Below, piece by piece: positions 23,158-46,102 of a DNA stretch of 64,000 nt. The position numbers and the translations under genes were made by a program. The first letter of the stretch is position 1; the number at the start of each line of letters is the position of its first letter. The notes below the pieces were generated by a model that had not been told where the DNA came from, searched no databases, and saw nothing but the letters and a program-made list of their open reading frames with translations. This DNA comes from a virus: the IMG/VR virus record IMGVR_UViG_3300030103_004875; one strand, written 5' to 3'.

Positions 23158-23790
23158 ATGACAAAAGTGATTTCTTTTTATTCTGATGTAAATGAGGATA
23201 AATACTACACAAAGTGTGCGGATAGACTTCGGGAAATGTCTTCCCGTTTTTCTCTAGACTTACACCTAGAGGAAAAGGAATCTCTGGGTTCCTATAGAAA
23301 TAATTGTTTATCGAAACCAAAGTTTATTAAAGATAAACTGGAAGAACTCAAACAACCACTGGTGTGGACTGATGTTGATACAGTTTTTAGGCAATATCCA
23401 CAGGCATTTGATATGGTTCCGGAACATGTTGATGTTGCTTTTTCATCCTCATCTCCTGATCTCAGAGGAATGAAGGCCTCTCCTTTGTATTTTAATTATA
23501 CGGATGGGGCTTTATTTTTCTTGGACGAATGGATAAATCGATCGGAACAGGTTTTATTGGATATGGATGTAAACTTTGATCACGAAGTTTTATTTGGAAT
23601 ATTTGGTTCTTGCCAGGAAATGGTGAAGTATGGCGTATTCCCACCAACATACTGTGTATGGCCGCAGGATGTGAATGAATATACAGTAATTGAGATGGGA
23701 ATGTCGGACGTTCCTGATAAGATAGAAGTTTTAAAGAAAATGGGTATAGATGGTAACCTTTTAGCAATACAAACAGTGGGAATACTATGA
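23158..23790 (+). CDS. Nucleotide-diphospho-sugar transferase (GT-A fold)
   Basis: KPKFI..L, LVWTDVD (DxD motif), DHEVL. Confidence 0.7.
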   Translation: MTKVISFYSDVNEDKYYTKCADRLREMSSRFSLDLHLEEKESLGSYRNNCLSKPKFIKDKLEELKQPLVWTDVDTVFRQYPQAFDMVPEHVDVAFSSSSPDLRGMKASPLYFNYTDGALFFLDEWINRSEQVLLDMDVNFDHEVLFGIFGSCQEMVKYGVFPPTYCVWPQDVNEYTVIEMGMSDVPDKIEVLKKMGIDGNLLAIQTVGIL

Positions 23791-24635
23791 AAAAACTACA
23801 GTGTGTGGGTGCTGGATTCAATCCAGATCAATCTTCTAATTCAAATTTAAAACCAAAAACATTTGAATGGTCAAATGAACATCAAGATATTCAAATCTTG
23901 ATCGATAACTCTATTCTATATGCAAACAAAATAGATAAGAGATTTGATCAGAAGAGATATGGATGGGTGTGTGAGTCATCAGCAATAGTTCCTCAACTTG
24001 CACAATCACTGGAGGACTTCTATGAAGTTATTATAGAAGAAGGTGAGTTCGAGGCTATATTTACTAATAATCAAAAATTGTTAGGTCTTGATGATCGTTT
24101 CATTTATAATTCAACTGGTAGTAATTTTCCGTGGATTCCTGTAGAGTCATGGGGAATGCACGACAAAATAAAATTATGTTCTATGGTTGCTTCTCCTAAA
24201 TTGGCATGTCCCGGACATCAATATAGGCATGAAATTGCTTCTAAGTTTAAAAATAAATTAGATTTATTTGGGGGTGCATGTGACTCTCCCCGAATAGGTA
24301 TTTCTGATGATTTAAATTTGAAATGGAATGATAAACGATCTGCTATATGTCCATATATGTTCTCGGTAGTAATGGAGAACGAATCTGTTCCAAATTATTA
24401 TACAGAAAAGGTGACAGATTGTTTTGCGGTAGGAACGGTTCCCATTTACTGGGGTGCAACGAACATTGGACATCGATTTGATGATCGTGGAATTATATCA
24501 TTAGATGATAATTTTGATATAGACTCTTTGAGTGCGGACTTATATGAATCTATGAAACCTTATATTCAAAATAATTTAGAGACAGTACGATCTTTAGAAA
24601 TGGCTGATGATGAACTTGCAAACAAAATCCTATAA
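23787..24635 (+). CDS. GT10 (alpha-1,3-fucosyltransferase-like) glycosyltransferase
   Basis: YMFSVVMENESVPNYYTEKVTDCFAVGTVPIYWG. Confidence 0.85.
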   Translation: MKKLQCVGAGFNPDQSSNSNLKPKTFEWSNEHQDIQILIDNSILYANKIDKRFDQKRYGWVCESSAIVPQLAQSLEDFYEVIIEEGEFEAIFTNNQKLLGLDDRFIYNSTGSNFPWIPVESWGMHDKIKLCSMVASPKLACPGHQYRHEIASKFKNKLDLFGGACDSPRIGISDDLNLKWNDKRSAICPYMFSVVMENESVPNYYTEKVTDCFAVGTVPIYWGATNIGHRFDDRGIISLDDNFDIDSLSADLYESMKPYIQNNLETVRSLEMADDELANKIL

Positions 24636-25497
24636 ACCTACAATAAAGAACGGTGATTATCTTTTTTCTGATGAATTAACATTTCCATTTCCGGTGGAAA
24701 TACATTTTACTCGTATGGAGTCATTCGATAATCCGAATGCTGTCAAAGTTCTTGTGTTGTCAAATGAATCTATGATGTCACCCAATCGATCTACCATAAG
24801 TGAGGTCATTGATAATCATAAAAAGTATGATCTTATTTTAGGAACCGATGATGAAATTATTGTTTTCTGTGAGAATGCCAAAAAGTTTCCGTATGGTAGC
24901 ACTTGGTTAAATAGAGGAAACATAAAACACCCTGATGGATTAGGTAGATATGAAGATAATAGTCCATCTTTTGATGGTATTACTAAAGATTTTAGTGTAA
25001 GTTTTCTTGCTTCTTGGTACAATCTAAATCGACCTGGTTACGCATTAAGGCAACAAGTTTGGAATAGAAAAGAAGAGATACCTATAGCAAGAAATTTTTA
25101 TACCAGTGTAAAGTGTTTTTCAAATGCACCCACTCCTCTACCCGGAGGGGAGAAAGAGGTACTATTCGATTCTCAATATCACATTTGTATAGAAAATCAT
25201 GCAATAGGAAACTACTTCACAGAAAAACTGATTGATTCTTTTCTTACATTGAGCATTCCAATTTATTGGGGATGTACCAATATAGAGGATTATTTTGATG
25301 TTGACGGAATGATTTTATTTGATACAATAGATGATCTATTAGAGAAACTTAACGATATAACTCCAGAACATTATTTCAATAAACTTGATGTCATGAAAGA
25401 AAACAAAAAACGAGCGATAGAGTATGCCAACTTTGATGAAAGAATTTTTAAGGAAATAATAAAGCATGATCGTACAAATAACAATGACCCGAAATGA
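24607..25497 (+). CDS. Second GT10-like glycosyltransferase
   Basis: YHICIENHAIGNYFTEKLIDSFLTLSIPIYWG. Confidence 0.85.
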   Translation: MMNLQTKSYKPTIKNGDYLFSDELTFPFPVEIHFTRMESFDNPNAVKVLVLSNESMMSPNRSTISEVIDNHKKYDLILGTDDEIIVFCENAKKFPYGSTWLNRGNIKHPDGLGRYEDNSPSFDGITKDFSVSFLASWYNLNRPGYALRQQVWNRKEEIPIARNFYTSVKCFSNAPTPLPGGEKEVLFDSQYHICIENHAIGNYFTEKLIDSFLTLSIPIYWGCTNIEDYFDVDGMILFDTIDDLLEKLNDITPEHYFNKLDVMKENKKRAIEYANFDERIFKEIIKHDRTNNNDPK

Positions 25498-26308
25498 ATT
25501 GTTTCTTATCAAAGAAATGATGCCTATTTGGCGGAAGTATGCAGATGCTTTTGTTTTTATGGATGATTGTTCCACTGACGGAACTAGTGAGTGGTTAGAA
25601 GAACATAAAGATGAGTTTAATATTGTGTCTGTTCTTAAAACCGAGGCTGCTGGAGATGCCACACATAAAGAATCAAATGTGAGACAGGCTTTGTTTGATG
25701 AGGCATTTAAGCATTCTGGTAATATTATTTGTTTGGACAGTGACGAGTATCTAGATGGTCACATAAGCAAGGAACAATTAGAGGAAGCACTTGAAAATAA
25801 TAAAGATACTCTACTGTATTGTCCGTGGATTCAGTATACCGGAAAGAATAGAGTAAGAGTTGATGGACCTTGGAAAAATAACTTCAAAGACAGAATATCA
25901 AGTTACTCCACTAGACCTGAGTTTAAAAAAGCGGAGATGCACTCCGAACATCTTCCCCATCCGGGTAGACATGGTGTTGTCAATTCTCCCGGTTTATTTA
26001 TAGCACATTTACAATGGTTAGACAAACCAACTGTGGCTGTTAAACAATATTTCTGGAAAGTAACTGATTATGTTAATCATGCTACCTATGGTCATGATGT
26101 TACTCCTCCCTCTGCGTATGACGAATCTGTTGCAAATTTTGATTGGGAATATGTTGACTTCGATTTTGATCTGAAGGTGGATCCTGAGATATATTCTAAA
26201 CAGGATTTGAAAGAAAGTTACAAATATAAGTTCATTAAAGAAAATGTAAAAAAATATAATATTCCAAACCTCAATGATTGGGGAATGAATATTCATGGAG
26301 ATGTATGA
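25466..26308 (+). CDS. GT2-family glycosyltransferase
   Basis: MTRNE, VFMDDCSTDGT, ICLDSDE. Confidence 0.8.
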   Translation: MIVQITMTRNELFLIKEMMPIWRKYADAFVFMDDCSTDGTSEWLEEHKDEFNIVSVLKTEAAGDATHKESNVRQALFDEAFKHSGNIICLDSDEYLDGHISKEQLEEALENNKDTLLYCPWIQYTGKNRVRVDGPWKNNFKDRISSYSTRPEFKKAEMHSEHLPHPGRHGVVNSPGLFIAHLQWLDKPTVAVKQYFWKVTDYVNHATYGHDVTPPSAYDESVANFDWEYVDFDFDLKVDPEIYSKQDLKESYKYKFIKENVKKYNIPNLNDWGMNIHGDV

Positions 26309-27017
26309 TATGGTAACCGAAACGTGTAAAATTAATAATTTTAATAAGGACTATTTAAAGTATCTGTTTCCCCAGAGAACCAGACTTACTACAGAATATG
26401 CCCTTACCGAAGATTCTCCCCAAGAGGAAGTTGACGCGGCATTGACAAAGATGAATCAAACAGACTATGATATGATTAAGGATTATCTTCCACAACTCTG
26501 TGAAAATTCTTTGGACATTGGTTGTGGCTTGAGTTTGATTGATGTGGCAATTTACAATCATTATCCTGATAATTATTATCCAAAGAGTAGGGTTCTTGAT
26601 ATTTTTCTTTTGGATAAAACCGAACTCGATACTACAAAGATTTCTGGGTTCAATGAGGAGTATAGAGGATATAACAGCATGAGTGCTGCTCGTGAGATAA
26701 TGACCGAAAACGGAGTTCCTGATGAAAAAATCCACACGTTTGAAGTTGATGAGCATGATGAATTATATGAAAAGAAATTTCATCTCATAACTTCACTCTT
26801 GTCATGTGGTTGGCATTATAATGTTGATACCTATATGGATTTGTTTGAGAAAACTTTACACCCCGAAGGGCGCATCATTATTGATATTAGACATGATACT
26901 GGACAAGTTGAAAAAATGAAGTCTAAATTTAAATTGGTTAAACAAATTTATAATCACGCCGAATCTAAGCATACTGGTGGAAACATCGGAGATCGATACG
27001 TCTTTAAACATAAGTGA
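26295..27017 (+). CDS. Class I SAM-dependent methyltransferase
   Basis: SLDIGCGLS, FHLITSLLSCGWHY, LHPEGRII. Confidence 0.75.
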   Translation: MEMYDMVTETCKINNFNKDYLKYLFPQRTRLTTEYALTEDSPQEEVDAALTKMNQTDYDMIKDYLPQLCENSLDIGCGLSLIDVAIYNHYPDNYYPKSRVLDIFLLDKTELDTTKISGFNEEYRGYNSMSAAREIMTENGVPDEKIHTFEVDEHDELYEKKFHLITSLLSCGWHYNVDTYMDLFEKTLHPEGRIIIDIRHDTGQVEKMKSKFKLVKQIYNHAESKHTGGNIGDRYVFKHK

Positions 27018-27034
27018 AGTGATAATTATACATT

Positions 27035-28348
27035 ATGAAAGAAATTTTAGAACTAGTAGAAAAATTTATCGATGAAAAGAATGAAAAGAAGTCATGGACA
27101 CCGGGAAAGGACTGGGTTCAATATGCAGGACCATATTTTGGTGTAGAGGAATATACTGCTTCTATTAAAACACTACTTGATGGGTGGTTGGTTCTTGGTA
27201 AAAATGGCATTCGATTCGAAAATCAGTTTCCTAAATTGATGCAAAAGGAGTTTGGTGTATTAACTAACAGTGGAAGCAGTTCCAATCTTATAATGATGTC
27301 TGCGTTGACATCAAAAAGATTGACAAATTTTCCTAAAGGCACTAAAGTAATAACTCCTATTGCCGGATTTCCTACTACAATAAATCCTATATTTCAAGTA
27401 GGATTTGAACCTGTATTTGTTGATATTGAATTAGATACTCTAAATTTAAATTTAGATCAGGTTGAGGAACGTGCGAAGGAGGGTTGTAAGATTATAACCT
27501 TTGCACATGTTCTCGGAAACCCCCCTAATATGGATCGACTAATGGAGATAATAGATGAGTATGGACTCATTCTATTAGAGGACTGCTGTGACGCTCTGGG
27601 ATCCACCTACAAGGATAGGGCTTTAGGTAGTTACGGTGACTTCGCGTCTTGTTCTTTCTATCCCGCACATCATATCACTATGGGTGAAGGTGGATTTGTT
27701 GCATGTAATACCAAGATGCAGGAAATTGTTGCTAGGAGTTTTCGTGAGTGGGGAAGAGGATGCTATTGTGTGGGTCAAAAGGCAGGTCTTCTGAAGAATG
27801 GGACATGTAAGAACCGTTTTTCTAATTGGTTACCTGCGTTACCTGATGAAATATTTGATCACAAGTATGTGTACGATGAGATAGGATATAATCTCAAACC
27901 TACAGATTTACAGGCAGCGATGGGTCTAGTACAGTTGGATAGACTCCCGGAGATCATAGAAAAGAGAAAGTATAATCATAAAAGATTATGTGATATATTC
28001 TCTAAGTATGATGATTATTTTGTAATTCCCAAGAAAACAGAGCACTCGGATCCTGCTTGGTTTGCATTTGCTTTGACCATAAAAGATAATGCTCCTTTTG
28101 CAAGGAAAGATATAGTAGATCATTTAGAGAATGCAATGATTCAAACTAGACCGTACTTTGCTGGTAATATTATGTTACAGCCTGCTTACGAAGGCCTCAT
28201 GGATCAGAATCAAATTGTTCGTGATTATCCAAATGCAAGAAAAGTTACCACTGATACATTTTTCTTGGGAACTAGTCCGGTCATTACTCCAGAGCAACTC
28301 GATTATATTGAAAAAATTGTGGATCAGTTTTGCGGGGATTTAAAATGA
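27035..28348 (+). CDS. rfbH: NDP-4-keto-6-deoxyglucose 3-dehydrase (RfbH/E1 type, DegT family)
   Basis: TNSGSSSNL, EDCCDALGS, SFYPAHHITMGEGG (His replaces the aminotransferase Lys), WGRGCYC..GTC Fe-S motif, DHKY. Confidence 0.92.
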   Translation: MKEILELVEKFIDEKNEKKSWTPGKDWVQYAGPYFGVEEYTASIKTLLDGWLVLGKNGIRFENQFPKLMQKEFGVLTNSGSSSNLIMMSALTSKRLTNFPKGTKVITPIAGFPTTINPIFQVGFEPVFVDIELDTLNLNLDQVEERAKEGCKIITFAHVLGNPPNMDRLMEIIDEYGLILLEDCCDALGSTYKDRALGSYGDFASCSFYPAHHITMGEGGFVACNTKMQEIVARSFREWGRGCYCVGQKAGLLKNGTCKNRFSNWLPALPDEIFDHKYVYDEIGYNLKPTDLQAAMGLVQLDRLPEIIEKRKYNHKRLCDIFSKYDDYFVIPKKTEHSDPAWFAFALTIKDNAPFARKDIVDHLENAMIQTRPYFAGNIMLQPAYEGLMDQNQIVRDYPNARKVTTDTFFLGTSPVITPEQLDYIEKIVDQFCGDLK

Positions 28349-29130
28349 AACGAGTGATTAATTGTTATAATCAGTATCATTTGGGTGATTGTATACAGAC
28401 GTTGCATTTTTTAATACATGCAACTAAGTGCAATAATGTAACTTTTAATTTTCTATGCAATCCAGCATATCACTCCCAATTGAAAGAGTTTATAGGAAAT
28501 GATGGGGTTAATTTATATTCGGTAGTTCCTGCTGATACAGATCATGAAAATTTTATTAACACATGGATAGGTGCTCATAATTATTCTCAGATATGTGATG
28601 ATTCTGATGTAATTTTTGGCGATGATTCTGATCAAGGAACATTTTTTCTCATTTTATCTAAGATTTTATCCGACAAAATGGGAATAGAATGTCCGTTTTC
28701 TAAAAAATCAGACATGATCTACAATGAATCCTCTTTGGAGTCTTCTTGCGAGACATCCATCGACTCTTACGATTATTTGTTTATCAATAGTCAAAACATG
28801 AGCATTCCCTTTCCAAATTTTGAAGAAGAGGTATCAAGTTTTATTGAACGGTTGCAGTTTAAGAATAAAAAGGTTATTACAACTACAAAATATCTTGACC
28901 TTCCTTGTACTCTGGATTATAATTTTAGTGTAGTGGACATTGCAAAATTATCTAAAAATGTTAAACATATTGTAGGTGTCAACACGGGTCCACTACACCT
29001 TTGCATGAATAAATGGACAATTGAGAATGTGGAAAGTTTTACAGTATGGTGTCCCGCAGAAACCTTTAATTACGGATCTAAGTTTAGATCCGTAAAATCC
29101 CTTGGAGAGATAGATGAGAGTAATCTTTAG
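28345..29130 (+). CDS. Putative GT-B (GT9-like) glycosyltransferase
   Basis: YHLGD near the N-terminus and IVGVNTGPLH near the C-terminus. Confidence 0.55.
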   Translation: MKRVINCYNQYHLGDCIQTLHFLIHATKCNNVTFNFLCNPAYHSQLKEFIGNDGVNLYSVVPADTDHENFINTWIGAHNYSQICDDSDVIFGDDSDQGTFFLILSKILSDKMGIECPFSKKSDMIYNESSLESSCETSIDSYDYLFINSQNMSIPFPNFEEEVSSFIERLQFKNKKVITTTKYLDLPCTLDYNFSVVDIAKLSKNVKHIVGVNTGPLHLCMNKWTIENVESFTVWCPAETFNYGSKFRSVKSLGEIDESNL

Positions 29131-29902
29131 TATTATTTTAAATGGCAAACATCATTTGTTACACAATGATCAATATAGATTTATATTAGATAATTGTGAT
29201 AAGTGGGTGGTAGTAGAAGGCGCATCCCAATCTAATGGTAGCACTCAGTGGTGTAAAACCATTCCTGATGAATATCACAATAACGGTGCAAGTGTCGATG
29301 GTACTAGAGAGTTTATGGAAGAGTTGGCGAAAACAGAATCCAATTTAGTATACGTTCCCTCTGATGGTTTCTGGAATTCTAAAGACGATCAGGTAAATCG
29401 TGCAATCGAAGAAGTCAAGAAACTCACTGACAAATGTTTTCTTTGGGAATTTGACATCGATGAACAGTGGACAGCAGAGGCACTTGATCAGGGAGAGAAA
29501 GAACTGACGGAAGGTAATCTAAAGTATGCCGGGTTTATGAGTAGATATTATGTTGGTAAGAATTTGCTCGCAAAAGGTCATTGGGGTGAAGGAAGGGATG
29601 GGGGTTACATCAGACTATGGGATTGGGAAGGTGAATCTTTTGTTCGTCATGAACCTCCAACTCTGGAGGGATGTGAGGATAAAGAAGGTAAGATGCTGAG
29701 TCCTATATTTGATCATTACAGTTATTATTTCGACGAGGATGTTAAATTTAAAGATGCTTGGTATAGTGGTCACGAAAACATTTATGAAAGATGGAAGTAC
29801 GTTAACTCTTTACCCAAAGAAGTTTTCCCGATCCACATTTCAGCGTTGATCACTGGGTACTGGGGAACAACTGATACTGGTATATTTTGGGAAGATCTAT
29901 GA
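29114..29902 (+). CDS. Putative GT-A glycosyltransferase
   Basis: VVVEGA, SVDGT, LWEFDIDE. Confidence 0.65.
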   Translation: MRVIFSIILNGKHHLLHNDQYRFILDNCDKWVVVEGASQSNGSTQWCKTIPDEYHNNGASVDGTREFMEELAKTESNLVYVPSDGFWNSKDDQVNRAIEEVKKLTDKCFLWEFDIDEQWTAEALDQGEKELTEGNLKYAGFMSRYYVGKNLLAKGHWGEGRDGGYIRLWDWEGESFVRHEPPTLEGCEDKEGKMLSPIFDHYSYYFDEDVKFKDAWYSGHENIYERWKYVNSLPKEVFPIHISALITGYWGTTDTGIFWEDL

Positions 29903-30549
29903 AAAAATTAATATGTTTTAGTCTATGGGGGAATGACAAGAAGTATACTAGTGGTGCTATTGAAAACTTAGAATTGGCTTCTACCTATTATCCCGGATGG
30001 ATTTGTAGATATTATATTTCTAAAGAAAATACTTCACCTGAACTTATACGAAAAATGAAAGAATATGATAATTGCGAAGTCTTCATGCATGATCAAATAG
30101 ATTCACAATGTCAAAGACTAATTAGATTCTTCCCTCTTCAGGAATCTGATGTTGAATATTTTATCGTAAGGGATTTGGATTCTCGGTTAGGCAGAAGAGA
30201 GGCCTCTGCTGTGGAGGAGTGGATACAATCTGGGCATGATTACCATATAATGAGAGACAATGTGGAACATGCAGTTCCTATGATGGCTGGGATGTGGGGA
30301 GCAAAGGGTAACCTTGTTCCTGATTTTTCTTCTCTAGTAGAGAAGCATAAGTTAACATTGGGAGAAGAGTTTGATACCAATGTTCAAGTGGATCAGCAGT
30401 TTCTTTGGAATTACATCATACCCAAAATTAAAAGTGCATTAGTTCATGATGAAAGCACTCATCTTGGGGGAAATAAATATCCTACAGAGAGATTAGAAAA
30501 TGAAATTCCTGAGTTTATAGGTCAATCATATGAAGATTTTGTATTATGA
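29899..30549 (+). CDS. Conserved glycan-cluster protein (GT-A-like)
   Basis: KLICFSLWG..Y..GAIEN...YPGW.CRYY, RFFPL, VRDLDSR, HIMRD, MAGMWG, DQQFL. Confidence 0.6.
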   Translation: MKKLICFSLWGNDKKYTSGAIENLELASTYYPGWICRYYISKENTSPELIRKMKEYDNCEVFMHDQIDSQCQRLIRFFPLQESDVEYFIVRDLDSRLGRREASAVEEWIQSGHDYHIMRDNVEHAVPMMAGMWGAKGNLVPDFSSLVEKHKLTLGEEFDTNVQVDQQFLWNYIIPKIKSALVHDESTHLGGNKYPTERLENEIPEFIGQSYEDFVL

Positions 30550-31514
30550 ATATTGAAGAAAAAAAAGTAGTTTATGTCACTGGATGTCTGGGATTTATTG
30601 GATCTTATGTCACTAGATTATGCCTGGATCGTGGTTGGTATGTAAAGGGTGTTGATAAAATAACCTATGCTGCCAATAAAAATCTTCTCTCGGAGTTTGA
30701 ATCCTACGATAATTTTTCATTTGTGCATTGTGATATAAACGAGTTAAAATTTTTATATGACTGTGATTATGTGATTAATACGGCAGCAGAAACACACGTT
30801 GGTAATTCTATTGCGAATAGTGATGATTTTGTTGAGTCCAATATAAACGGTGTGCATAATATTTTAGAGTTGATAAAAAATTATCGACAAGAACACACCA
30901 AGGTTCCTACTCTGTTACATTTCAGCACAGATGAGGTGTATGGGGATATAGAGGATGGTGCGCACACGGAAAATGATATATTAAAGCCTTCTAACCCTTA
31001 TTCTGCAACTAAGGCGGCCGCCGACATGTTAGTGCTGGCGTGGGCCAGAACTTATAATATCCCATATGTGATTGTTCGTCCCACCAATAATTATGGCATT
31101 GGCCAGTATGTTGAAAAATTAATACCAAAGGCTTGTAAGTTCTTGAAACTTGGTAGAAAAATACCACTTCACAATAATGGAACACCTGTCCGAAATTGGT
31201 TACATGCAGAGGATACGGCTAACGCTGTTATAAAGATTATTGAGTCTGGTATGAATAATGAAATTTATAACATCGCTGGCGGGTTTGAACAAACCAACAT
31301 GGATACTGTTCATAAGTTAATTTCTGTATTGACAGACGGGGAAGAATATGATATAAAAGACTATGTTGATACCTCATTTTCTCGTGTGGGACAAGATTTA
31401 AGGTATGCTTTGGATGACTCTAAACTTCGCTCTTTGGGATGGGAACCCAAGAAAGACTTTGATACAGAAATCATCGACATAGTAAATTACTACAAGAATA
31501 AATTTATATGGTAA
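30546..31514 (+). CDS. rfbB: dTDP-glucose 4,6-dehydratase-type extended SDR
   Basis: VTGCLGFIGS, DKITYAA, AAETHV, STDEVYG, PYSATKAAAD, NNYG..Q.VEKLIP. Confidence 0.9.
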   Translation: MNIEEKKVVYVTGCLGFIGSYVTRLCLDRGWYVKGVDKITYAANKNLLSEFESYDNFSFVHCDINELKFLYDCDYVINTAAETHVGNSIANSDDFVESNINGVHNILELIKNYRQEHTKVPTLLHFSTDEVYGDIEDGAHTENDILKPSNPYSATKAAADMLVLAWARTYNIPYVIVRPTNNYGIGQYVEKLIPKACKFLKLGRKIPLHNNGTPVRNWLHAEDTANAVIKIIESGMNNEIYNIAGGFEQTNMDTVHKLISVLTDGEEYDIKDYVDTSFSRVGQDLRYALDDSKLRSLGWEPKKDFDTEIIDIVNYYKNKFIW

Positions 31515-33322: not shown

Positions 33323-33323
33323 T

Positions 33324-38374: not shown

Positions 38375-38814
38375 AATTAATAGCCCACAGGGGAAATACC
38401 AACGGTCCCAATTTAAAAAGAGAAAATACTCAATCATATATTGATGAGTCTATAGGTAAGGGATATGACGTAGAAATAGATGTTTGGGTGGTAAAGGGTG
38501 AATTATTTTTAGGTCATGATGAACCGATTAGTATGGTTGATTTGGAATGGTTACTTGGTAGGTCTAAAAATTTATGGATACATTGTAAAAATTTTAATTC
38601 TTTGCAGTTTCTATTGAATTATGATCAATTAAAATTATTCTTCCATGAAGAAGAAAGATACACAATTATTAGTAATGGTTTAATATGGGCCCATGATTTG
38701 AGAGAAGTAAATGATCAGTGTATAATACCGTTGTTGTCCGAGGAAGATTTGGTTTCTTGGAACCCCACCGAGGTTTTTGGTATTTGTTCTGATTATGTTG
38801 ATTATTTAAAATAA
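38371..38814 (+). CDS. Short glycerophosphodiester phosphodiesterase-like protein
   Basis: LIAHRGN, EN, DVEIDVW, LGHD, WIHCKN, GICSDY. Confidence 0.8.
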   Translation: MKLIAHRGNTNGPNLKRENTQSYIDESIGKGYDVEIDVWVVKGELFLGHDEPISMVDLEWLLGRSKNLWIHCKNFNSLQFLLNYDQLKLFFHEEERYTIISNGLIWAHDLREVNDQCIIPLLSEEDLVSWNPTEVFGICSDYVDYLK

Positions 38815-38831
38815 AGAACTGGAATATAAAA

Positions 38832-39506
38832 ATGAGAACTCCCGAGATACACTATGGTACAAATTTTGGTAAATATATTGTTAGTCTAATCGTTAATAAT
38901 AAATCAATTCAGAGAGTTATAGAGATAGGTTCTGGTAGCGGCAATGGCTCCACACAATGTCTTGCCGCTGCACTCCAGGCTAATCAGACGGAAAATACTA
39001 AACTAGTTTGTATGGAGCCAACTGAATATTTTAGTGATCTAGAAAAAAATACAGAAAACTTTTCTTTTGTGGAATGTCATAAGAATACCAGTATTTCATA
39101 TGATTCGTTTTCATTAAAAAATTATGAAGATTATATCTCGTACTGTATCGAGCATAGGGAAGTATTGAACTCCTTGAAAGGCAGAGAATTGGAATCTGTA
39201 CGAGAGGACCTCGAATCCCGTATCAACTGGTACAATCAGGATATAGTTCATTTTAAAGGATCAGATACAGGGGTTTTAAATAATCTGACAGAAGACTATG
39301 ATCTGTGTTTGATTGATGGTAGCGAATTTTCTGGATATGACGAATTTTTATTAGTTAAAGATAGAGTAAGTATAATTCTTCTCGATGATGATAATGAATA
39401 TAAAAACTACAAAACTAAACTTCACCTAAGCGAAGATAATGATTGGATATGTGTTGGACACGAGGCAGAAAGAAATGGGTGGAGTTCATGGATACGTAGG
39501 AAATGA
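38832..39506 (+). CDS. Class I SAM methyltransferase-like protein
   Basis: VIEIGSGSGNGST, DLCLIDGSEFSG, LLDD. Confidence 0.65.
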   Translation: MRTPEIHYGTNFGKYIVSLIVNNKSIQRVIEIGSGSGNGSTQCLAAALQANQTENTKLVCMEPTEYFSDLEKNTENFSFVECHKNTSISYDSFSLKNYEDYISYCIEHREVLNSLKGRELESVREDLESRINWYNQDIVHFKGSDTGVLNNLTEDYDLCLIDGSEFSGYDEFLLVKDRVSIILLDDDNEYKNYKTKLHLSEDNDWICVGHEAERNGWSSWIRRK

Positions 39507-39508
39507 AC

Positions 39509-39516
39509 TATACATA
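39509..39516 (+). promoter_or_regulatory. Putative late promoter (TATACATA)
   Basis: Intergenic, upstream of the TPR-GT2 gene; same 8-mer as upstream of gp3. Confidence 0.55.
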
Positions 39517-39540
39517 CAATGAACAAAAGGATTTTTTATC

Positions 39541-40776
39541 ATGAAACCAACTATTACTCTGTGTATGATTGTTAAAGATGAAACTCACGTTATCGAGAGG
39601 TGTCTGCGTTCCGTCGCTCCCTTCGTAGACCGATATGATATCACTGATACGGGATCTACAGACGGAACTCCCGATAAAATAAAAGAAATAATGGATGAAT
39701 TGGGTGTTCCCGGTGAAGTATACCTTTCTGATTGGAAGGGATTTGGTAATCATGCAGGTAATATTGGATCTCGTACCGAAGCGTTTCGTAATGCCGATAA
39801 TAAAGCAGACTATGCGTGGGTTATTGATGCAGATGACTCTTTAGTGGGTGAGTTGAAACTACCCGATGATGCTGATGCTGATGCGTACTCCCTAAAAATA
39901 CAGAGGGGTGACTTTGTATGGTGGAGAAATCAAATATTTAAAACTTCTTCTAGGTGGAGATATGAGGGCATACTTCACGAGTATGCAGCGTGTGATAATG
40001 AAAATGCAAAAGTTAGTCGATTGTTTGGAAACTATAGCGTAGAGGCTAGAACTGAGGGTAATCGAAATGTGGGTATAACTCCAGTAGAAAAGTATGAAAG
40101 GGATGCTGAAACTCTGAGAAATGCTTTGGAGGATGATCCGGATAATGCGAGGTATCAATTTTACCTAGCACAGTCATACTTCGATTCTCAACAATGGGAT
40201 AATTCACTCGAAGCGTATCAGAAACGAGTTGATATAGGTGGATGGCCTGAGGAAGTTTTCTATAGCATGTATAGAGTTGCAATTCTTAAGGGCATAAAAG
40301 GCGAACCTAATATGGACGTAATTAGAGCATTCGAGGACTGCTATAACTATAAACCTGACAGAGCAGAACCTTTATATCAGATATCAAGAATTTATCGTTC
40401 TATGGGTAAAAATGCTTTGGCATTTATGCACGCAAGCACTGGTATCGGAATTCCTTATCCAGACAATGATATTCTTTTCATTCAGGAGGAAGTATATAAG
40501 TATGGGTTACTGGATGAAATTGGTGCAACTGCTTTTTATGCAGGTAAACCTCATATGGGATATGCCGCATGTAAACGACTTATTGAGGAAAATTTAATCC
40601 CACCAGAACAAAAAGAGAGAGTTAGGCAAAACTACGAAAGTTATACTAACATTATGCAGCAAATGCAACAACAACAGATGATGAAGGAAATGGATTCACA
40701 AATTGATGATTTGAAGAAAAAGCAACAAAATAAAGAAACTGCCAAAAAGTATAAAAAGAAGAAAAAGAAGAGATAA
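39541..40776 (+). CDS. GT2 glycosyltransferase with C-terminal TPR repeats
   Basis: LCMIVKDE..IERCL.S, DTGSTDGT, IDADD, Y.G.LHE; ARYQFYLAQSY and PDRAEPLY TPR-like helices. Confidence 0.9.
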   Translation: MKPTITLCMIVKDETHVIERCLRSVAPFVDRYDITDTGSTDGTPDKIKEIMDELGVPGEVYLSDWKGFGNHAGNIGSRTEAFRNADNKADYAWVIDADDSLVGELKLPDDADADAYSLKIQRGDFVWWRNQIFKTSSRWRYEGILHEYAACDNENAKVSRLFGNYSVEARTEGNRNVGITPVEKYERDAETLRNALEDDPDNARYQFYLAQSYFDSQQWDNSLEAYQKRVDIGGWPEEVFYSMYRVAILKGIKGEPNMDVIRAFEDCYNYKPDRAEPLYQISRIYRSMGKNALAFMHASTGIGIPYPDNDILFIQEEVYKYGLLDEIGATAFYAGKPHMGYAACKRLIEENLIPPEQKERVRQNYESYTNIMQQMQQQQMMKEMDSQIDDLKKKQQNKETAKKYKKKKKKR

Positions 40777-40777
40777 A

Positions 40778-40798
40778 ACTTCTTAATACATAAGAAGT
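40778..40798 (+). promoter_or_regulatory. Inverted repeat enclosing an AATACATA late-promoter-like element
   Basis: ACTTCTTA-ataca-TAAGAAGT upstream of the collagen gene. Confidence 0.45.
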
Positions 40799-40818: not shown

Positions 40819-42222
40819 ATGTCTCAGTTTGTTCTTCAATCTAAAATTGATAATAAGTTTTCTAAAAACGATCTTTTCATAAAAGCACCTAACAATGTGG
40901 GTGTTGATGAAGTTGTAAATTTTGGAGATGGTATTTCTAGTATTGTTCTTGAAACCGAGGACAAAACTTCAGTTATCAAATTTATAGGATCTCATAAAAC
41001 CATTAATGAGTATTTTAGAGAAATAGAGGAAACTGAAAGGGATCAGTATATACTCAAGGAAACTTTAAACTCCTCTCTACAAAGAGGGGATGTTTTATTT
41101 TCCACCGATAATTCCCCCAACGTGGAAATTAGAATCAGTCCCGGTATACACAGTTTGGATGTAGAAAGCACAGATGGAAATGTTTATCGTTTCAGTGGCA
41201 GTAAAAATAACATAGATGAACTTTTTAGATACTTTCCTACCGAAGTTGTGGAAGAGGAGGAGCAAGTTTTATTGGGTGAACAAGGCCCTCCTGGCCCACA
41301 GGGTCCTAGAGGGAAAGAAGGTTCTGTTGGACCTCGTGGGCCTAAAGGAGAAAAGGGCTCTCCCGGACTTCCGGGTACAGATGGTTCAATAGGACCAAAG
41401 GGCGAGCAGGGTGAGCAGGGCCCTGTGGGAGAAAGGGGACCACAAGGTGATCAGGGTCCTGTGGGAGATCCAGGTCCCTCTGGTAAACCGGGTGTTGACG
41501 GTAAAGACGGAGAGGTTGGACCTAAAGGAATACAAGGAAACGCTGGAGAAATTGGACCTAAGGGTGATCCCGGCGAAAAGGGGGATCAGGGAGAAATCGG
41601 TCAGGTGGGCCCTCAAGGTTTAATTGGACCTAAGGGTGATCCCGGCGAAAAGGGTAAACAGGGATCCAAAGGATCTAAAGGTTCGAAGGGCGATAAAGGT
41701 GATAGGGGTGATCCGGGAACTGATGGTAAGGAGGGCCCAAGAGGACAACGTGGGTTAGATGGTAAGCAAGGACCAAAAGGTGATAAGGGTGATTCCGGGA
41801 TTGTATCTGCGAAGTATCCTCTTGTATATGATACTAATGGTAATGAGATAAGTTTTGATACAAAAAAACTAGAGGAACTTTTAGGTAAATTTAGTAATTT
41901 AGGTCCGGGACAAAATGGTCCTGATTATGCTGCTATGACAGATTGGCTTGCTGCTGCCGGTGGTGCTGTTGCAATAATAGACGGTAACAATAACAATGCC
42001 AAAGTAACAAATTCTTTGGGGGATTTTGTAATAGAGGGTAGTGGAGTTTCCCTAAATAAGTTAGGTAAGACAGTAACCATGACCATTTCTGGGGGTGGCG
42101 GGGCAACTACCGTGGTTAGTGATAATGCTCCCGATGGAATTTATGTTACCGGGGATAAATGGATTGAGTCTGATACGGGAACACTTTTTACTAGATATCA
42201 AGCCTTTTGGGTAGAATTTTGA
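40819..42222 (+). CDS. Collagen-like fibre protein
   Basis: About 58 uninterrupted Gly-X-Y triplets (41275-41796); C-terminal [16 protein letters not shown]...WVEF motif. Confidence 0.92.
41550..41654 (+). repeat. 33-bp direct repeat within the collagen region
   Basis: aattggacctaagggtgatcccggcgaaaaggg at 41550-41582 and 41622-41654. Confidence 0.9.
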
Positions 42223-42233
42223 GGTCAAACTAA

Positions 42234-44444
42234 ATGTCGAATTTTCCAACCAATCCATCAACGGGAGCCACTCACGCAATAGGAGACAAAACGTGGGAGT
42301 ATAATGGTTCTGCATGGCAAAAAATATTCAGCGGAGATGGTATACGAGCGATAGGAATCTCTGGTGGTGATGTTACGATTGGAAGAAGCGGATTAAATTT
42401 TGATTCTGACACTGTTGGCTTGACTCTATCTCTCCATTCTTCGGGAAACACTGCATCTTTGATAATAAAAGGAGACGCTTTAGCTTCCACATCCGGAAGA
42501 GCGGAGTACACATATACCGTTGTGTCTGGTGTGATAAATCCCCCAAACGCAACATCCAACGGTCAATTTGTATACAATGATGATACTGGTCAAATATCTA
42601 TTTTTAAGTTTGACAACGACGGTGGAGATTTTAGAACTCAATTATCACAAGCGGCCGCCGGAGGAGTGGAGGGAGTTAGTTCTAAAATTAATGTGGTTGT
42701 AGGGAATGATAATAGAACAAAAGTCTTCGAGATTGACAGTCAACAGGTAACTTACGATGGAACTAAGTTTAATGTTGGGAGTTCCTTCCTACAGGGAAAT
42801 ACTGCTGGAACTGGTAAAAAGGTTACTGTATTTATTGATCAGGGAGAACAATTCCTTAGAGCAAAGGAATATAGATTCCCTGACGGAACTTCTGCCTCTT
42901 CTATAGTTACTTCATTCAATGGTGAAACGGGTGATGTCACCACCACTAGCACGGTTCTTCCTGTTGCTGGAATCACTGCGACATCTGGTATCACTATAGG
43001 TGGTGACATCCATGCTCCAAATGAGTTTCATATTCGTAACGCGAGCGGTGAGACAGTCATTGATGTTGCTAATAGAAATGTAAGCATAGGAGATGTTGAC
43101 TCTGGGGGCAATGATACGGACATAAACATTCGTGATTCTCATAATGCAATTTATCTAAACGCAGGATCTCAGATCAGACTCAATGCTCCAGATGTTTACA
43201 TTGAACAGGGGGGTCATTTAGGTGCATTGGGCGATACGGATACTCATATAAATTTTGCTGGGAGTGATGAATTATTTTTAGTGGCAGGTGGAAACACGCT
43301 CATGCAAGCAACCACCAACAATATAATTATTGGCGGTGTGACATTTGGTGTCACTGGTGGGGGAGCAACATTCGGCGGAATAATACACGCACAGGGCTTA
43401 ACACTAGGACCCGGCGGAGTTACATTCCCTGATGGTACTAATATGAAAACTGCTGCTGCTGGTGGTGGCGGAATAGAAGAACTTAACGGATCTACCGCTG
43501 CTGGAATAACTCTTGCTCAGGGCTTTAGATATAAAGTATCGGCAGTTGCTGCATCACCAAGTTCACCAAGTGCGGGTGAAATCGCAATTAAAGACCTTCT
43601 TGGTGCGGGATTGCTCCCCAGTGGTTTCATACTTCACAAAAATCCTTTTAACTCTGCTATAGATCTAAGTGATACTGATAGTAATGGAAGTTATTTTAAA
43701 ATGTTTGCCGATGCTGGTGGTATCGCAACAATAATAAATGAAAAAACCGGAAAGTCCGCCCAGTTTATTAACACCTCATCTTTTACTTCGAGTAGTAATG
43801 TTTTAGAGTATACTGGTAATGCAAATTCAAATGATGCTACGAGCGCCCTCGCGTCCGTTGGTGATTTCGTTATCGTTAAATTGGATTTTTATACCGATAC
43901 TGGAGTAACATCTATTGGTGGAGATTCCTTCCAAAATAAGGGAGCTTTGGCTTTAGGTAAGGGTATAACTACGGAAAACGCTGGTAGTGGAACGGGCAGA
44001 CTCAGACTTGAACAGGAAACTATAGGATTTATTCTTGATGGTGCCGGATCTCCTCTTGGGACAGGAGACAAATTGGACGCTCTTCGTCAAATTCCATATA
44101 ATATGGAGATTGATTCGACCTCTGCTTTCATTCCTGCCGGAGTTGCCGGGGTTGATAAAACGATTACATTTTCCATCAAGAAAACTTCTACTCTTAATAG
44201 TGTAACTAGTTCTGGAGGTATAACAGGATCTAAGTTAACTTTAGGAAACACTGCGTCTGCCGATCAGACAGGATTTACCTTTGATGGTATTGTTGGCGGT
44301 GTTCTCTTTAGAGAACTGGGTAGTGCCTCATCAAATGTTGGTGCAACTGTGGATAAAAATGAGTGGATATTCCCAGAAATAACTGGTAACTCTGGTGACA
44401 TAAATAAATTACAGATATTCATGAAATTAAAACCACAGGACTAG
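42234..44444 (+). CDS. Tail fibre / virion fibre protein
   Basis: N-term NFPTNPSTGATHAIGDKTWEYNGSAW; G/T/S-rich; FPDGT and VTSFNGETGDV fibre motifs. Confidence 0.8.
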   Translation: MSNFPTNPSTGATHAIGDKTWEYNGSAWQKIFSGDGIRAIGISGGDVTIGRSGLNFDSDTVGLTLSLHSSGNTASLIIKGDALASTSGRAEYTYTVVSGVINPPNATSNGQFVYNDDTGQISIFKFDNDGGDFRTQLSQAAAGGVEGVSSKINVVVGNDNRTKVFEIDSQQVTYDGTKFNVGSSFLQGNTAGTGKKVTVFIDQGEQFLRAKEYRFPDGTSASSIVTSFNGETGDVTTTSTVLPVAGITATSGITIGGDIHAPNEFHIRNASGETVIDVANRNVSIGDVDSGGNDTDINIRDSHNAIYLNAGSQIRLNAPDVYIEQGGHLGALGDTDTHINFAGSDELFLVAGGNTLMQATTNNIIIGGVTFGVTGGGATFGGIIHAQGLTLGPGGVTFPDGTNMKTAAAGGGGIEELNGSTAAGITLAQGFRYKVSAVAASPSSPSAGEIAIKDLLGAGLLPSGFILHKNPFNSAIDLSDTDSNGSYFKMFADAGGIATIINEKTGKSAQFINTSSFTSSSNVLEYTGNANSNDATSALASVGDFVIVKLDFYTDTGVTSIGGDSFQNKGALALGKGITTENAGSGTGRLRLEQETIGFILDGAGSPLGTGDKLDALRQIPYNMEIDSTSAFIPAGVAGVDKTITFSIKKTSTLNSVTSSGGITGSKLTLGNTASADQTGFTFDGIVGGVLFRELGSASSNVGATVDKNEWIFPEITGNSGDINKLQIFMKLKPQD

Positions 44445-44457
44445 TCTAGGAGTTAAA

Positions 44458-44673
44458 ATGCAATCGTTATACCCATTCGCAGAAATCATGACTGAACTTA
44501 CAAAGATTGAAGGTCAAATTGTAAAGTTGCAAGAAATTTTTACTTCTTTGGAAGAAAGAACATCAACCGACGAATCACTTATTGACACTTTTGTTGTAAA
44601 AGCCAATGAGTTAGAAACAGCAGCAAACGCACTCAAGAACATTACCTTCACGAATTTAAATAGGAGTAAATAA
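44458..44673 (+). CDS. Small coiled-coil hypothetical protein
   Basis: AGGAG RBS; heptad pattern. Confidence 0.6.
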   Translation: MQSLYPFAEIMTELTKIEGQIVKLQEIFTSLEERTSTDESLIDTFVVKANELETAANALKNITFTNLNRSK

Positions 44674-44987
44674 TGGCAGACATTACGGACCCAGAGGCGA
44701 TTAAATTCGTCAATGAATATATTAGACCTATGTGTGAGAACATTCGTTACATGAAAGCACGGGGAGATGATTTTGCACTTAAGTGGGCACAACTAAGTGG
44801 TGATTTTCCAAACGACACCTCCCCAGTTGTAGACGGAAGAGATGCAGAGGGTATCAGCCGTTTGACTGGTGCAGACATAAACGCAGTCGCTATCATATTC
44901 AATACTCTTCTTGGAGATATTGATGCAACAGCGACAGCAGTTATTGCAAAACCTTGTGTGCGACCTCTTCTTTACTCGGGTGAATAA
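44673..44987 (+). CDS. Hypothetical protein
   Basis: AGGAG RBS; translationally coupled on both sides (TAATG). Confidence 0.65.
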   Translation: MADITDPEAIKFVNEYIRPMCENIRYMKARGDDFALKWAQLSGDFPNDTSPVVDGRDAEGISRLTGADINAVAIIFNTLLGDIDATATAVIAKPCVRPLLYSGE

Positions 44988-46102
44988 TGGCAACCAAGTA
45001 TTACTACAGTCAAGCAAGTGGTGACAATGACGGTAGCAGCGAAGCAAACGCCTACACCGATCTCCAGACGGCACTGAACGCTCTTAGTGCTGGTGATCAT
45101 TTATACTGTAAGAGACACACTTCGCGTGAGGGTGTTAAGACCACGAACTTAACATTCACAACAAATTCCAACACAAACGCTGGAAATACTATTGTCGAAG
45201 GGTACACAACTACGCCAGGTGATGGTGGGATGTATCAGACTGCAAGTCCTGTAGACTTCAATGCAGAAGGTGTAGAACTAAGATACTTTGATGTTGACGC
45301 TGATGGCGATGCCACCACTGCGATATCAATAGGCGGAGATGGTAGTATTGCTTATAGGTGCAAGGCTGTAAATGCTTATAGCTTCGGGAATGGGTTTGAA
45401 CTAATTGATGCTGCCGCTATCGAATGTTTTGCTCAGGGTAAGGTGACTCAAGCGGGCGACCAAGTTTTTAGTTGCAATCGAGCAACAATGATTAACTGTG
45501 TGGTGATCATAGATGCTGCATCTGGATCTGCGGGTGCAGCGATAGAAGCGGGTGCTGGATTTAGACAGAATCAAATAATAAACTGCTTGATTATCAATGA
45601 AGATGGTGCTGAAAGTCATGTCGGTATTAGAGCCACGGGGAGTTCTAACCAACAACAGACATATGTTAACAATACCATATACAACATGGATATAGGGATT
45701 GAGTTCGTGGAGGGACCAGCCTCGGGCAGGGTGAACGTGCCATCAACTATGTACGGTAATATACTTTATAGTGTTGGTACTGGTATAAAAAACACACAAA
45801 ACACCAATACTACCACTTTCGGTCTGCTTGCTTATCAGAATGCATTCGGGGCAGTTACAACTGCTCAAACCAGTGGTCTTGCCACAGATGTTGATAATTT
45901 TACTTTGACCGAAAATCCGTTTATTGACACCACCAACTTTCAGTTAAACAACGCGCCTGGCGGCGGAGCGTTAATTAAGGGTAAACTTGGTATTCCCGAT
46001 CCTAAAGATCCATCCAAATTAACTTCGCTAGTCAGAACTGACTTTCAGTCTTCTGGTGGTGTCACACCCAATCCAGTCGGTGAAGTTTCCAGATCTTTCT
46101 GA
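44987..46102 (+). CDS. Parallel beta-helix (pectin-lyase-like) virion protein
   Basis: YYSQASGDNDGSSEANAYTDLQTAL..LSAGD.LY; repeated INC.I / VNNTIY / GNILY stacks; DNPF..F.L closing motif (ENPFIDTTNFQL). Confidence 0.7.
   Translation: MATKYYYSQASGDNDGSSEANAYTDLQTALNALSAGDHLYCKRHTSREGVKTTNLTFTTNSNTNAGNTIVEGYTTTPGDGGMYQTASPVDFNAEGVELRYFDVDADGDATTAISIGGDGSIAYRCKAVNAYSFGNGFELIDAAAIECFAQGKVTQAGDQVFSCNRATMINCVVIIDAASGSAGAAIEAGAGFRQNQIINCLIINEDGAESHVGIRATGSSNQQQTYVNNTIYNMDIGIEFVEGPASGRVNVPSTMYGNILYSVGTGIKNTQNTNTTTFGLLAYQNAFGAVTTAQTSGLATDVDNFTLTENPFIDTTNFQLNNAPGGGALIKGKLGIPDPKDPSKLTSLVRTDFQSSGGVTPNPVGEVSRSF

Follow-up and report, generated by a model that had tools for sequence, protein, structure and literature searches.

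Mycobacteriophages reportedly encode glycosyltransferases that decorate virion proteins, at the C-termini of the capsid and tail tube proteins (Freeman et al. 2023, cited in PMC12801897 and PMC12619734). Among bacteria, GmaR is the flagellin O-GlcNAc transferase of Listeria. In Clostridioides difficile, SgtA, a protein of 358 amino acids (aa) with a GT-A domain and four tetratricopeptide repeats (TPRs), is encoded immediately upstream of bclA3 and adds the initiating beta-O-GlcNAc from UDP-GlcNAc to Thr residues of the BclA3 collagen repeats (PMC7157674). Large and variable clusters of glycosyltransferase and nucleoside diphosphate (NDP)-sugar genes, termed lipopolysaccharide (LPS)-like or "cell-wall" clusters and often located near fibre genes, occur in marine T4-like myoviruses such as P-SSM2, S-SCSM2R and pelagimyophages, and published work takes them to modify host O-chains (PMC7029224, PMC12801897). 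Here we have analyzed a stretch of 64,000 nucleotides (nt) from an uncultured marine T4-like myovirus (IMG/VR record IMGVR_UViG_3300030103_004875; hereafter, the window), in which the regA-gp43 junction of the replication module holds an island of sugar genes. The island ends with the gene of a GT-A + TPR glycosyltransferase, designated TPR-GT2 (39541..40776, + strand), which is followed by genes for collagen-like, fibre-like and beta-helix-like proteins.

The reading that we favour, with a probability of roughly 55% for the full model, is the cytoplasmic, phage-encoded glycosylation of virion surface proteins. TPR-GT2 would be expressed from a late promoter, in one unit with the collagen-like, fibre and beta-helix genes, and would place the first sugar on Thr or Ser residues in Gly-x-Thr (G-x-T) contexts of phage structural proteins. 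The best candidate acceptor in the window is a 736-aa fibre; in most relatives, the candidates are a small virion protein of the Ig-like type and collagen-like fibres rich in Thr. The island would make activated rare sugars, with a 4,6-dehydratase, RfbH, a PanB-fed thiamine diphosphate (ThDP) carboligase and a reductase leading to an acyl-branched 3,6-dideoxyhexose, and with a kinase-aldolase fusion, a nucleotidyltransferase and a phosphatase providing a second sugar module. Two GT10-like and one or two GT2-like enzymes would extend the glycan, which would also be methylated by the island. We favour this model because it explains together the type of enzyme, its conserved pairing with G-x-T proteins in bacteria and phages, the late motif, the location with sugar genes on one side and structural genes on the other, and the missing membrane machinery. 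Virion glycosylation had already been suggested in an earlier note on this DNA; the comparative data presented below (SunS/ThuS fold, collagen-gene neighbours, late motif, G-x-T proteins downstream) lend it support, whereas the acceptor, the role of the island and the timing stay at the level of prediction.

The GT-A + TPR enzyme and its relatives

TPR-GT2 has 411 aa, scored above the Pfam cut-off for GT2 and matched TPR, which is compatible with a protein glycosyltransferase of the SgtA/GmaR/SunS type. The Pfam TPR matches covered residues 184-245, and an AlphaFold2 model with a predicted local distance difference test score (pLDDT) of 93 showed helices over residues 181-349. In an alignment of 48 TPR-GT2 sequences, the motifs DTGSxD (residues 36-41) and DADD (96-99) were invariant and the conservation of the TPR and catalytic domains was comparable (33 vs. 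41 invariant columns). The best solved folds retrieved by Foldseek were the peptide S-glycosyltransferases SunS and ThuS, matching over the full length at ~1e-13, ahead of teichoic-acid transferases and plain TPR proteins. The closest solved sequence (PDB) was that of GmaR (4e-7, in the GT-A domain). The best fold and sequence matches thus come from the glycocin enzymes and from Listeria GmaR, which have in common the glycosylation of peptides or proteins. They differ from TPR-GT2 in that the structural-alignment identity is only 14-18% and in that no flagellin context or anti-repressor role is evident here. Nor does the locus resemble a glycocin cluster: no glycocin precursor, thiol-disulfide oxidoreductase or exporter was found near TPR-GT2, whose neighbours are sugar enzymes and fibre genes, and the NCBIfam SunS match was restricted to residues 2-65 (E 0.0012).

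The protein database contained 2,083 clusters matching TPR-GT2 at E <= 1e-10, with relatives of 77-90% identity among them. Among cultured phages, tblastn produced only ten matches (jumbo phages, PaBG and Listeria records) and none in T4-like marine phages. The best viral-structure matches to the model (BFVD) were GT2 proteins of giant viruses, with template modeling (TM) scores of 0.76-0.83 and 31-36% identity. The GT-A + TPR unit is found in Indivirus, Pithovirus, Harvfovirus, Cedratvirus and CeV, often within much longer proteins.

A scan of one genome per prokaryotic species (GTDB) revealed 359 places encoding a TPR-GT2 relative with 36-44% identity over residues 1-364, in Mycolicibacterium, Streptomyces, Burkholderiales, Solimonas, Caulobacteraceae, Acidobacteriota and others. 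Eighty of these were kept as loci, and 38 of the 80 carried a collagen-like ORF (open reading frame). About 30 of the 80 displayed long G-X-Y runs with Thr at Y in 0.44-0.95 of the triplets, mostly within ~1 kb of the enzyme gene. As a base-rate control, five whole genomes (3.4-7.9 Mb) were searched with Pfam collagen models: in 5/5 the strongest collagen-like gene was the neighbour of the enzyme gene, and in 2/5 the enzyme neighbours were the only collagen-like genes. In Burkholderiales and relatives (loci L098, L100, L121 and L130), the GT-A + TPR unit lies inside an open frame of ~1,750 aa beside a G-X-T collagen-like gene; such frames may correspond to a multidomain enzyme or to over-extended ORF calling in GC-rich DNA.

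The window shares several features with the SgtA/BclA3 pair, BclA3 being a collagen-like glycoprotein of the exosporium. Both have a soluble GT-A domain, here with its DxD motif, fused to C-terminal TPRs, and an enzyme gene immediately 5' of a collagen-like gene, from which it is separated by 42 nt in the window. SgtA acts in the cytoplasm without a lipid carrier, as predicted for TPR-GT2, and in bacteria the homologues of TPR-GT2 show the same pairing with collagen-like genes of the Thr-rich G-X-T kind. The enzyme-collagen pairing was also present in about 12 viral relatives. Unlike the C. difficile system, the pair is here phage-encoded, bears a late-promoter motif and is preceded by a 16-kb rare-sugar island, and the collagen-like protein of the window has Lys or Gln at Y where BclA3 has Thr. 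We consider it probable that TPR-GT2 O-glycosylates structural proteins of the phage. The mycobacteriophage systems would be alike in that phage glycosyltransferases decorate virion proteins in the cytoplasm (here predicted), but they reportedly use another enzyme family and other acceptor sites and are not described with such nucleotide-sugar islands.

Locus order, acceptor candidates and promoter motifs

With TPR-GT2 as a probe, 143 related loci were found in IMG/VR, of which 80 were kept. Their order was invariant: regA, a variable sugar island, TPR-GT2, a variable structural block, a dUTPase-like gene, a DUF1599 gene and gp43. Where both ends were visible, the islands of the relatives measured from ~30 nt to 9.8 kb. 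The structural block ranged from 0 to 8 kb (<200 nt in 6 loci, 0.65-1.45 kb in 26 and >2 kb in 16). Two of the loci (L040:10001-12438 and L041:9023-11367) encode two tandem TPR-glycosyltransferase paralogues, the second copy being ~42% identical to the window enzyme, which suggests a diversified donor or acceptor specificity.

In 42 of the 58 relatives with a short ORF after the enzyme gene, this ORF encoded a protein of ~145 aa with a hypervariable Gly/Thr/Ser loop of the type GVTGGGSTGEF. The model of this protein (pLDDT 87) most resembled an Ig-like chain of ~140 aa in the tail tip of T5/DT57C (TM score 0.57-0.67), and its sequence matched phrog_1084 and, more weakly, a tail-fibre-assembly PHROG. 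In other relatives a collagen-like protein is encoded directly after the enzyme, and these proteins were of two kinds, charged (Y = K/Q/R/D, as in the window) and G-X-T (Y = T in 0.42-0.80).

In the window, the enzyme gene is followed on the same strand by the gene of a 467-aa collagen-like protein (40819..42222; Pfam Collagen 1.2e-27; PHROG tail-fibre families), with 59 G-X-Y triplets at residues 153-329 and mostly Lys, Gln or Pro at Y. This repeat composition ruled it out as the leading Thr acceptor. The next gene (42234..44444, +) encodes a Gly/Thr/Ser-rich fibre-like protein of 736 aa (14% Gly, 10% Thr and 10% Ser), 60% identical to its counterpart in locus L002 and with nearest Atlas clusters that are weak and all viral. 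It contained 23 G-x-T motifs vs. 10.6 expected (z 4.4; z 3.8 for G-x-T-[GA]) and was the only protein of the window with a strong G-x-T excess, a small ORF outside the region (18345-19052) reaching z 3.4 on 3 motifs. For G-x-T-[GA], a gp3-like protein and the 736-aa protein stood out in the window, and gp23 did not. Since only two triplets of the collagen-like protein are G-x-T, the 736-aa fibre appears to be the better, and in the window the best, acceptor candidate by sequence. A similar bias was observed among unique ORFs: the G-x-T excess over shuffled sequences had a mean z of 1.8 for downstream ORFs, with 25% above 3, and of 0.0 for island ORFs, with 1% above 3 (Mann-Whitney p 7e-20).

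The structural block of the window is completed by three further + strand genes. A 71-aa ORF (44458..44673), absent from the original ORF list, fills an apparent gap; a 104-aa ORF (44673..44987) is 88% identical to its counterpart in L002 and also occurs, together with the last gene, in L003, L029 and L032. This last gene (44987..46102) encodes a 371-aa protein that resembles a right-handed beta-helix (Atlas features 0.96, which is lead-level evidence). Its ten best named Atlas matches were all NosD/Beta_helix/DUF1565, and Pfam and PHROGs gave no match. Neither the 736-aa nor the 371-aa protein had a tblastn match among cultured phages. The collagen-like, Ser/Thr-rich fibre and beta-helix genes that the earlier note had placed behind the enzyme were thus recovered, through Pfam, composition and lead-level Atlas features, respectively.

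The late-type promoter motif that had been noticed at 39509 was also confirmed, as TATACATA (39509..39516, +) 32 nt before the TPR-GT2 ATG, and the motif recurs in relatives. On the + strand (58 kb), the 7-mer ATACATA occurred in four copies, all within 60 nt of an ORF start, preceding the late gene gp3, the nucleotidyltransferase gene, TPR-GT2 and the collagen-like gene. The copy before the nucleotidyltransferase gene is part of AATACATA (37219-37226, 50 nt before the gene), and AATACATA is found again at 40785..40792 (+), where it lies in the loop of a hairpin, 27 nt upstream of the gene of the collagen-like protein. Further late-type motifs are CATAAATA, located before regA (22711-22718) and upstream of the 71-aa ORF (44399-44406), and CTAAATAC, located inside the regA 3' end (23129-23136), 22 nt before the first island gene. 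Because the relaxed hexamers TACATA and TAAATA were not specific in the window itself, only the 7-mer and the evidence from the relatives carry weight.

Among these relatives, 37 of the 80 had ATA[AC]ATA within 70 nt of the TPR-GT2 start, mostly as (T/C)ATAAATA at -25 to -28 and in at least six unrelated sequence contexts, and an NTAAATA or ATACATA motif precedes regA. In a complete relative of 147 kb, TAAATA was the most enriched hexamer upstream of ORFs (17 vs. 1.2 expected). There, [CA]TAAATA marked ORFs of the structural blocks, and within the 43-kb replication module it marked only regA, TPR-GT2 and one dubious site. The conserved coding sequence of the RegA C-terminus, CCTAAATACCATAT (23126-23137 in the window), contains CTAAATAC and is also found in L035-L038, L044 and L048. 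CTAAATAC precedes whichever gene follows regA, which is the first island gene here and the TPR enzyme gene in minimal phages.

One base after the stop of the 371-aa gene lies a perfect sigma-70-type promoter (TTGACA-16-TATAAT, 12/12 match; 46103..46130, +). Sigma-70-like promoters were not more numerous in the island than expected from shuffled sequences, and the analysis relied on perfect matches alone. The perfect promoter at 46103..46130 overlaps the TTG given as the start of the dUTPase-like ORF. Since the alignments with homologues begin at residue 18-22, translation probably starts at the ATG at ~46162. The promoter is predicted to mark the end of the late block and the restart of early genes (dUTPase-like, DUF1599 and gp43). 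Given the position of the motifs in the window and in the relatives, and the sigma-70 promoter directly after, the segment 39509-46102 looks like a late unit.

This boundary also bears on the idea that TPR-GT2 or other island transferases attach sugars to modified phage bases, aided by the adjacent dUTPase/dCTP-deaminase-like and DUF1599-like genes. The enzyme gene is always beside the dUTPase-like gene and the weak DUF1599 ("nucleotide modification associated") gene, inside the replication module, and phage glycosyltransferases that hypermodify DNA are known (Pyle 2024, cited in PMC12619734). Yet a perfect early promoter stands between the fibre block and the dUTPase-like gene, the DUF1599 match is below its Pfam cut-off, and the fold and the TPR domain indicate peptide acceptors. 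Moreover, no hydroxymethylase was detected among the ORFs scanned, and ThyX and ribonucleotide reductase (RNR) are ordinary. We regard DNA glycosylation as very improbable.

The acceptor could also be a surface or cytoplasmic protein of the host, for example flagellin, pilin, an S-layer component or a collagen-like protein, and its modification would mask a receptor or disable a host function. GmaR, the closest solved sequence, glycosylates flagellin, and the TPR domain is highly conserved despite differing structural neighbours, with the enzyme persisting even in minimal loci. Such a target would leave the late motif and the predicted co-transcription with phage structural genes to be explained; the G-x-T enrichment is specific to phage proteins encoded downstream, and the homologues in bacteria have collagen-like partners of their own. 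In our view, a host protein is an improbable target, although less so than DNA.

The sugar island and its predicted chemistry

The island comprises 20 co-oriented + strand ORFs (23158-40776, TPR-GT2 included) with overlapping or nearly abutting ends. The earlier note had counted 20 glycan-related genes; the packing and orientation held, and 13 of the 20 had family-level evidence of sugar chemistry, but two gave only sub-threshold hints and five nothing informative. The latter five, starting at 23158, 28330, 29887, 35013 and 38371, lacked an informative match in Pfam (also with relaxed thresholds), NCBIfam and PHROGs, and the first four also in a phmmer search of the PDB.

The first gene, i1 (23158..23790, 210 aa, no family), lies directly after regA in relatives together with the two GT10-like genes. 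GT10a (23787..24635) scored above the Pfam Glyco_transf_10 cut-off (29.8 bits) and GT10b (24607..25497) below it (19.8 bits); the two share a C-terminal GT10 motif with 35% identity over the motif (E 2e-13), so that both GT10 assignments of the note could be retained. A GT2-type (GT-A) glycosyltransferase follows (25466..26308; Glyco_tranf_2_4 and Glycos_transf_2, both above the Pfam cut-off), and then i5 (26295..27017, 240 aa), a possible methyltransferase with weak Pfam matches below cut-off (MTS E 0.01, Methyltransf_31 E 0.03). A second, probable class I methyltransferase is encoded at 38832..39506 and fell just below the cut-off (Methyltransf_24, 25.4 vs. 26.3 bits). Of the two methyltransferases proposed previously, this one has near-threshold support at family level and i5 gave only a sub-threshold hint, so that the count of two was overstated.

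The next genes encode an RfbH/E1-type NDP-4-keto-6-deoxyhexose 3-dehydrase (27035..28348; NCBIfam NF011936, 471.6 bits vs. an equivalog cut-off of 423; Pfam DegT_DnrJ_EryC1 1.5e-76), i7 (28330..29130, 266 aa, no family, conserved in L001, L020 and L039), i8 (29114..29902, 262 aa), a possible GT-A protein with a weak, sub-threshold match (Glycos_transf_2 E 0.08) and 85% identity to L001, and i9 (29887..30549, 220 aa), which has no family and is common in related islands (13 loci). They are followed by an RmlB-like NDP-hexose 4,6-dehydratase (30546..31514; Pfam GDP_Man_Dehyd/Epimerase; TIGR01181 301 bits, below the equivalog cut-off), a ThDP carboligase of the YerE/JanthE type for sugar branching (31508..33322; three TPP domains; PDB 8rph 2.8e-131), the ketopantoate hydroxymethyltransferase PanB (33324..34247; Pfam 2e-98; NCBIfam above cut-off) and a short-chain dehydrogenase/reductase (SDR; 34244..35023; Pfam Epimerase 3e-16), a candidate YerF-like reductase whose gene adjoins ThDP or transketolase genes in relatives. 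After i14 (35013..35915, 300 aa, no matches) come a PRK/Udk-family kinase fused to a class II aldolase/epimerase domain (35912..37273; Pfam PRK 1e-34, Aldolase_II 2.5e-21), a sugar-1-phosphate nucleotidyltransferase (37270..38097; Pfam NTP_transf_3 and NTP_transferase), a small HAD-like phosphatase (38078..38374; mainly phrog_1238, 1.7e-27, with the NCBIfam EcbF-BcbF phosphatase at E 3e-4) and i18 (38371..38814, 147 aa), a member of a phage family without assigned function (phrog_34507, 2.6e-38). A GDPD-like nature of i18, considered from an N-terminal motif, found no support in Pfam.

In the PDB, the ThDP enzyme matched JanthE (8rph) at ~1e-131 vs. 1e-74 for acetolactate synthases, and JanthE is a YerE-class carboligase that accepts ketones (PMC12188165). 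In yersiniose/erwiniose biosynthesis, an adjacent aldolase makes the gamma-hydroxy alpha-keto acid donor (PMC9306805). The window is similar to these pathways (YerE/YerF, ErwE/ErwF/ErwI) in grouping within one cluster an RfbH-type 3-dehydrase, a 4,6-dehydratase, a YerE-class carboligase, a reductase (SDR) and an adjacent keto-acid enzyme. It differs in its phage setting, in having PanB in place of the pyruvate aldolase, which would lead to a different and possibly ketopantoate-derived branch, and in that RfbH has no E3-type reductase partner among the identified island genes; the description of a "complete" assembly line was thus overstated. The product of PanB is ketopantoate, a gamma-hydroxy alpha-keto acid, and we infer that PanB supplies the donor of the ThDP enzyme. 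As PanB makes such an acid, and as the relative L054 encodes an HpcH/HpaI aldolase just upstream of its YerE-like ThDP enzyme, a ketopantoate-derived branch on a 3,6-dideoxyhexose would be a reasonable product. PanB was present in 0 of the 80 related viral loci. In the close relative L001 (3458-7218), the position of the YerE-like enzyme and PanB is taken by two proteins of 215 and 158 aa that form a split transketolase-like pair, and a 382-aa protein resembling the RuBisCO large chain is encoded a little further on. From L054 and L001, which differ at this point, the branching step appears to be a swappable slot. The cassette of kinase-aldolase, nucleotidyltransferase and phosphatase may follow, by analogy, the kinase-phosphatase-nucleotidyltransferase logic of NDP-heptose synthesis. 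Among cultured phages, RfbH homologues were found in some Synechococcus phages and panB in one Microcystis phage, and no YerE-class enzyme was found.

Three cassettes recurred in the relatives: i1 with GT10a and GT10b, usually after regA; RfbH, dehydratase, branching enzyme and SDR; and kinase-aldolase, nucleotidyltransferase, HAD-like phosphatase and i18, these four genes forming one cassette in L017 and L021. The cassettes recurred independently of each other and their identities did not track that of the anchor gene. Judged from these sequences, the island is a mosaic of exchangeable cassettes with TPR-GT2 as its fixed anchor.

The absence of membrane proteins, which the earlier note had remarked on, was borne out: in the 24 ORFs between 23158 and 46102, no 19-residue window exceeded a Kyte-Doolittle value of 1.6, our threshold for a transmembrane segment, and polytopic membrane proteins numbered 0 among 720 candidate ORFs in the islands of the relatives. 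Like an O-antigen or capsule cluster, the island has NDP-sugar synthesis genes and several glycosyltransferases, but the Pfam and transmembrane scans of the window revealed no initiating phosphoglycosyltransferase and no Wzx/Wzy or ABC exporter. From the fixed linkage to TPR-GT2 and the missing membrane machinery, the island products would be expected to end on the same acceptor as the TPR-GT2 sugar.

Host envelope remodelling has to be weighed here. The island would then build or alter O-antigen or capsule units on undecaprenyl-phosphate at the inner membrane face, using the initiating transferase, flippase, polymerase and ligase of the host, with the purpose of blocking superinfection or re-adsorption, and the TPR enzyme might be a separate, neighbouring function. 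In its favour, O-antigen clusters typically contain RfbH, 4,6-dehydratase and YerE-like enzymes together with GT10/GT11/GT34-type transferases (PMC9306805). Published work on pelagimyophages (PMC7029224) and cyanomyophages (PMC12801897) interprets their clusters in this way, and peripheral glycosyltransferases of LPS pathways likewise have no transmembrane helices. Against this, no initiating phosphoglycosyltransferase was present in the window island or in any of the 80 related loci, nor was a flippase, polymerase, ligase or ABC exporter. The last island gene is always that of a protein-type glycosyltransferase, with a late motif in front and structural genes behind, and in a strictly lytic T4-like phage a surface change made late would have only a short time to take effect. 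Envelope remodelling leaves both the anchor enzyme and the lack of membrane steps unexplained, and we consider it unlikely, though the least so of the alternatives. The consulted passages on the clusters of P-SSM2, S-SCSM2R and the pelagimyophages do not describe a late GT-A + TPR anchor or a G-x-T pairing (PMC7029224, PMC12801897).

Several observations weigh against virion glycosylation. Only its position connects the island with the TPR enzyme. The chemistry of the island, with 3,6-dideoxy and branched sugars and transferases of the GT10/GT11 type, is classically associated with O-antigens, and similar clusters in marine T4-like phages have been read as host-surface modification (PMC7029224, PMC12801897). 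The likeness to SgtA is one of domain architecture and gene order, drawn from its published description. The collagen-like protein of the window has G-x-T in only 2 of its 59 triplets, unlike an SgtA-type substrate, and the small Ig-like partner was not detected in the 64-kb window by tblastn or by a hidden Markov model search with filters off; its profile gave no significant match to the collagen-like or 736-aa proteins. In six minimal relatives, the enzyme gene lies between regA and the dUTPase gene with no neighbouring structural gene; two minimal-locus phages carry two tandem ~145-aa paralogues elsewhere in the contig. The p-values for synteny and G-x-T overstate independence because the loci are related. 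The late-promoter motifs are predictions, and CTAAATAC at the regA 3' end encodes conserved RegA residues and is thus also constrained by coding. Finally, the lineage is uncultured and known from genes alone, which makes the virion glycan itself a prediction.

A broader and more tentative proposal, which we hold as possible but somewhat doubtful, is that this uncultured T4-like lineage coats its fibres, and perhaps other virion proteins, with hypervariable self-made glycans, begun on G-x-T motifs by the conserved SgtA-like late enzyme and assembled from the rare sugars of swappable cassettes, here including an undescribed PanB-fed, YerE-type acyl-branched 3,6-dideoxyhexose, and that many "LPS" clusters of marine myoviruses are virion-glycosylation islands. 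If so, the LPS-like clusters of abundant marine myoviruses would dress the particle in variable glycans instead of remodelling the host surface, with a bearing on the adsorption, particle stickiness, grazing and decay of marine viruses. The SgtA-BclA3 principle, so far that of a single spore-former, would apply to many bacterial phyla, a phage family of >2,000 protein clusters and giant viruses. The concrete enzyme-substrate pairs named here would be testable in E. coli without phage culture, and the islands would represent a reservoir of rare branched-sugar chemistry (YerE-type carboligases with PanB, HpaI-type aldolase or split transketolase).

Genomic setting of the locus

The window encodes gp23 (698-2191), the gp3-like tail protein (2267-2851), UvsW (3241-4803) and the sliding clamp, clamp loader and RegA (20397-23151). 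The gene of the translational repressor RegA (22750..23151, +; Pfam Translat_reg 1e-39) forms the upstream boundary of the island. From 46110 onward, the dUTPase-like gene, the weak DUF1599 gene and the genes of gp43 polymerase, UvsX and gp41 follow, and later those of ThyX and RNR. gp43 and gp23 share only ~50-55% identity with their nearest cultured relatives (cyanomyophages), and megablast of the whole region against cultured phages gave no match.

A Cpn10/GroES-like gene (22037-22351) is located between the clamp-loader genes gp44 and gp62 and was present in only 1 of the 80 related loci. A 340-aa ORF (56108-57130) matched phosphate-selective porin O/P weakly (22.0 bits vs. a cut-off of 20.9), a match that, if genuine, would be out of the ordinary for a phage. 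Near-perfect sigma-70-type early promoters (TTGACA-17-TATAAA/TATAAT) occur in the intergenic gaps 5560-5638 and 16735-16774, preceding ORFs 5638 and 16774, the latter with a weak DNA methylase match.

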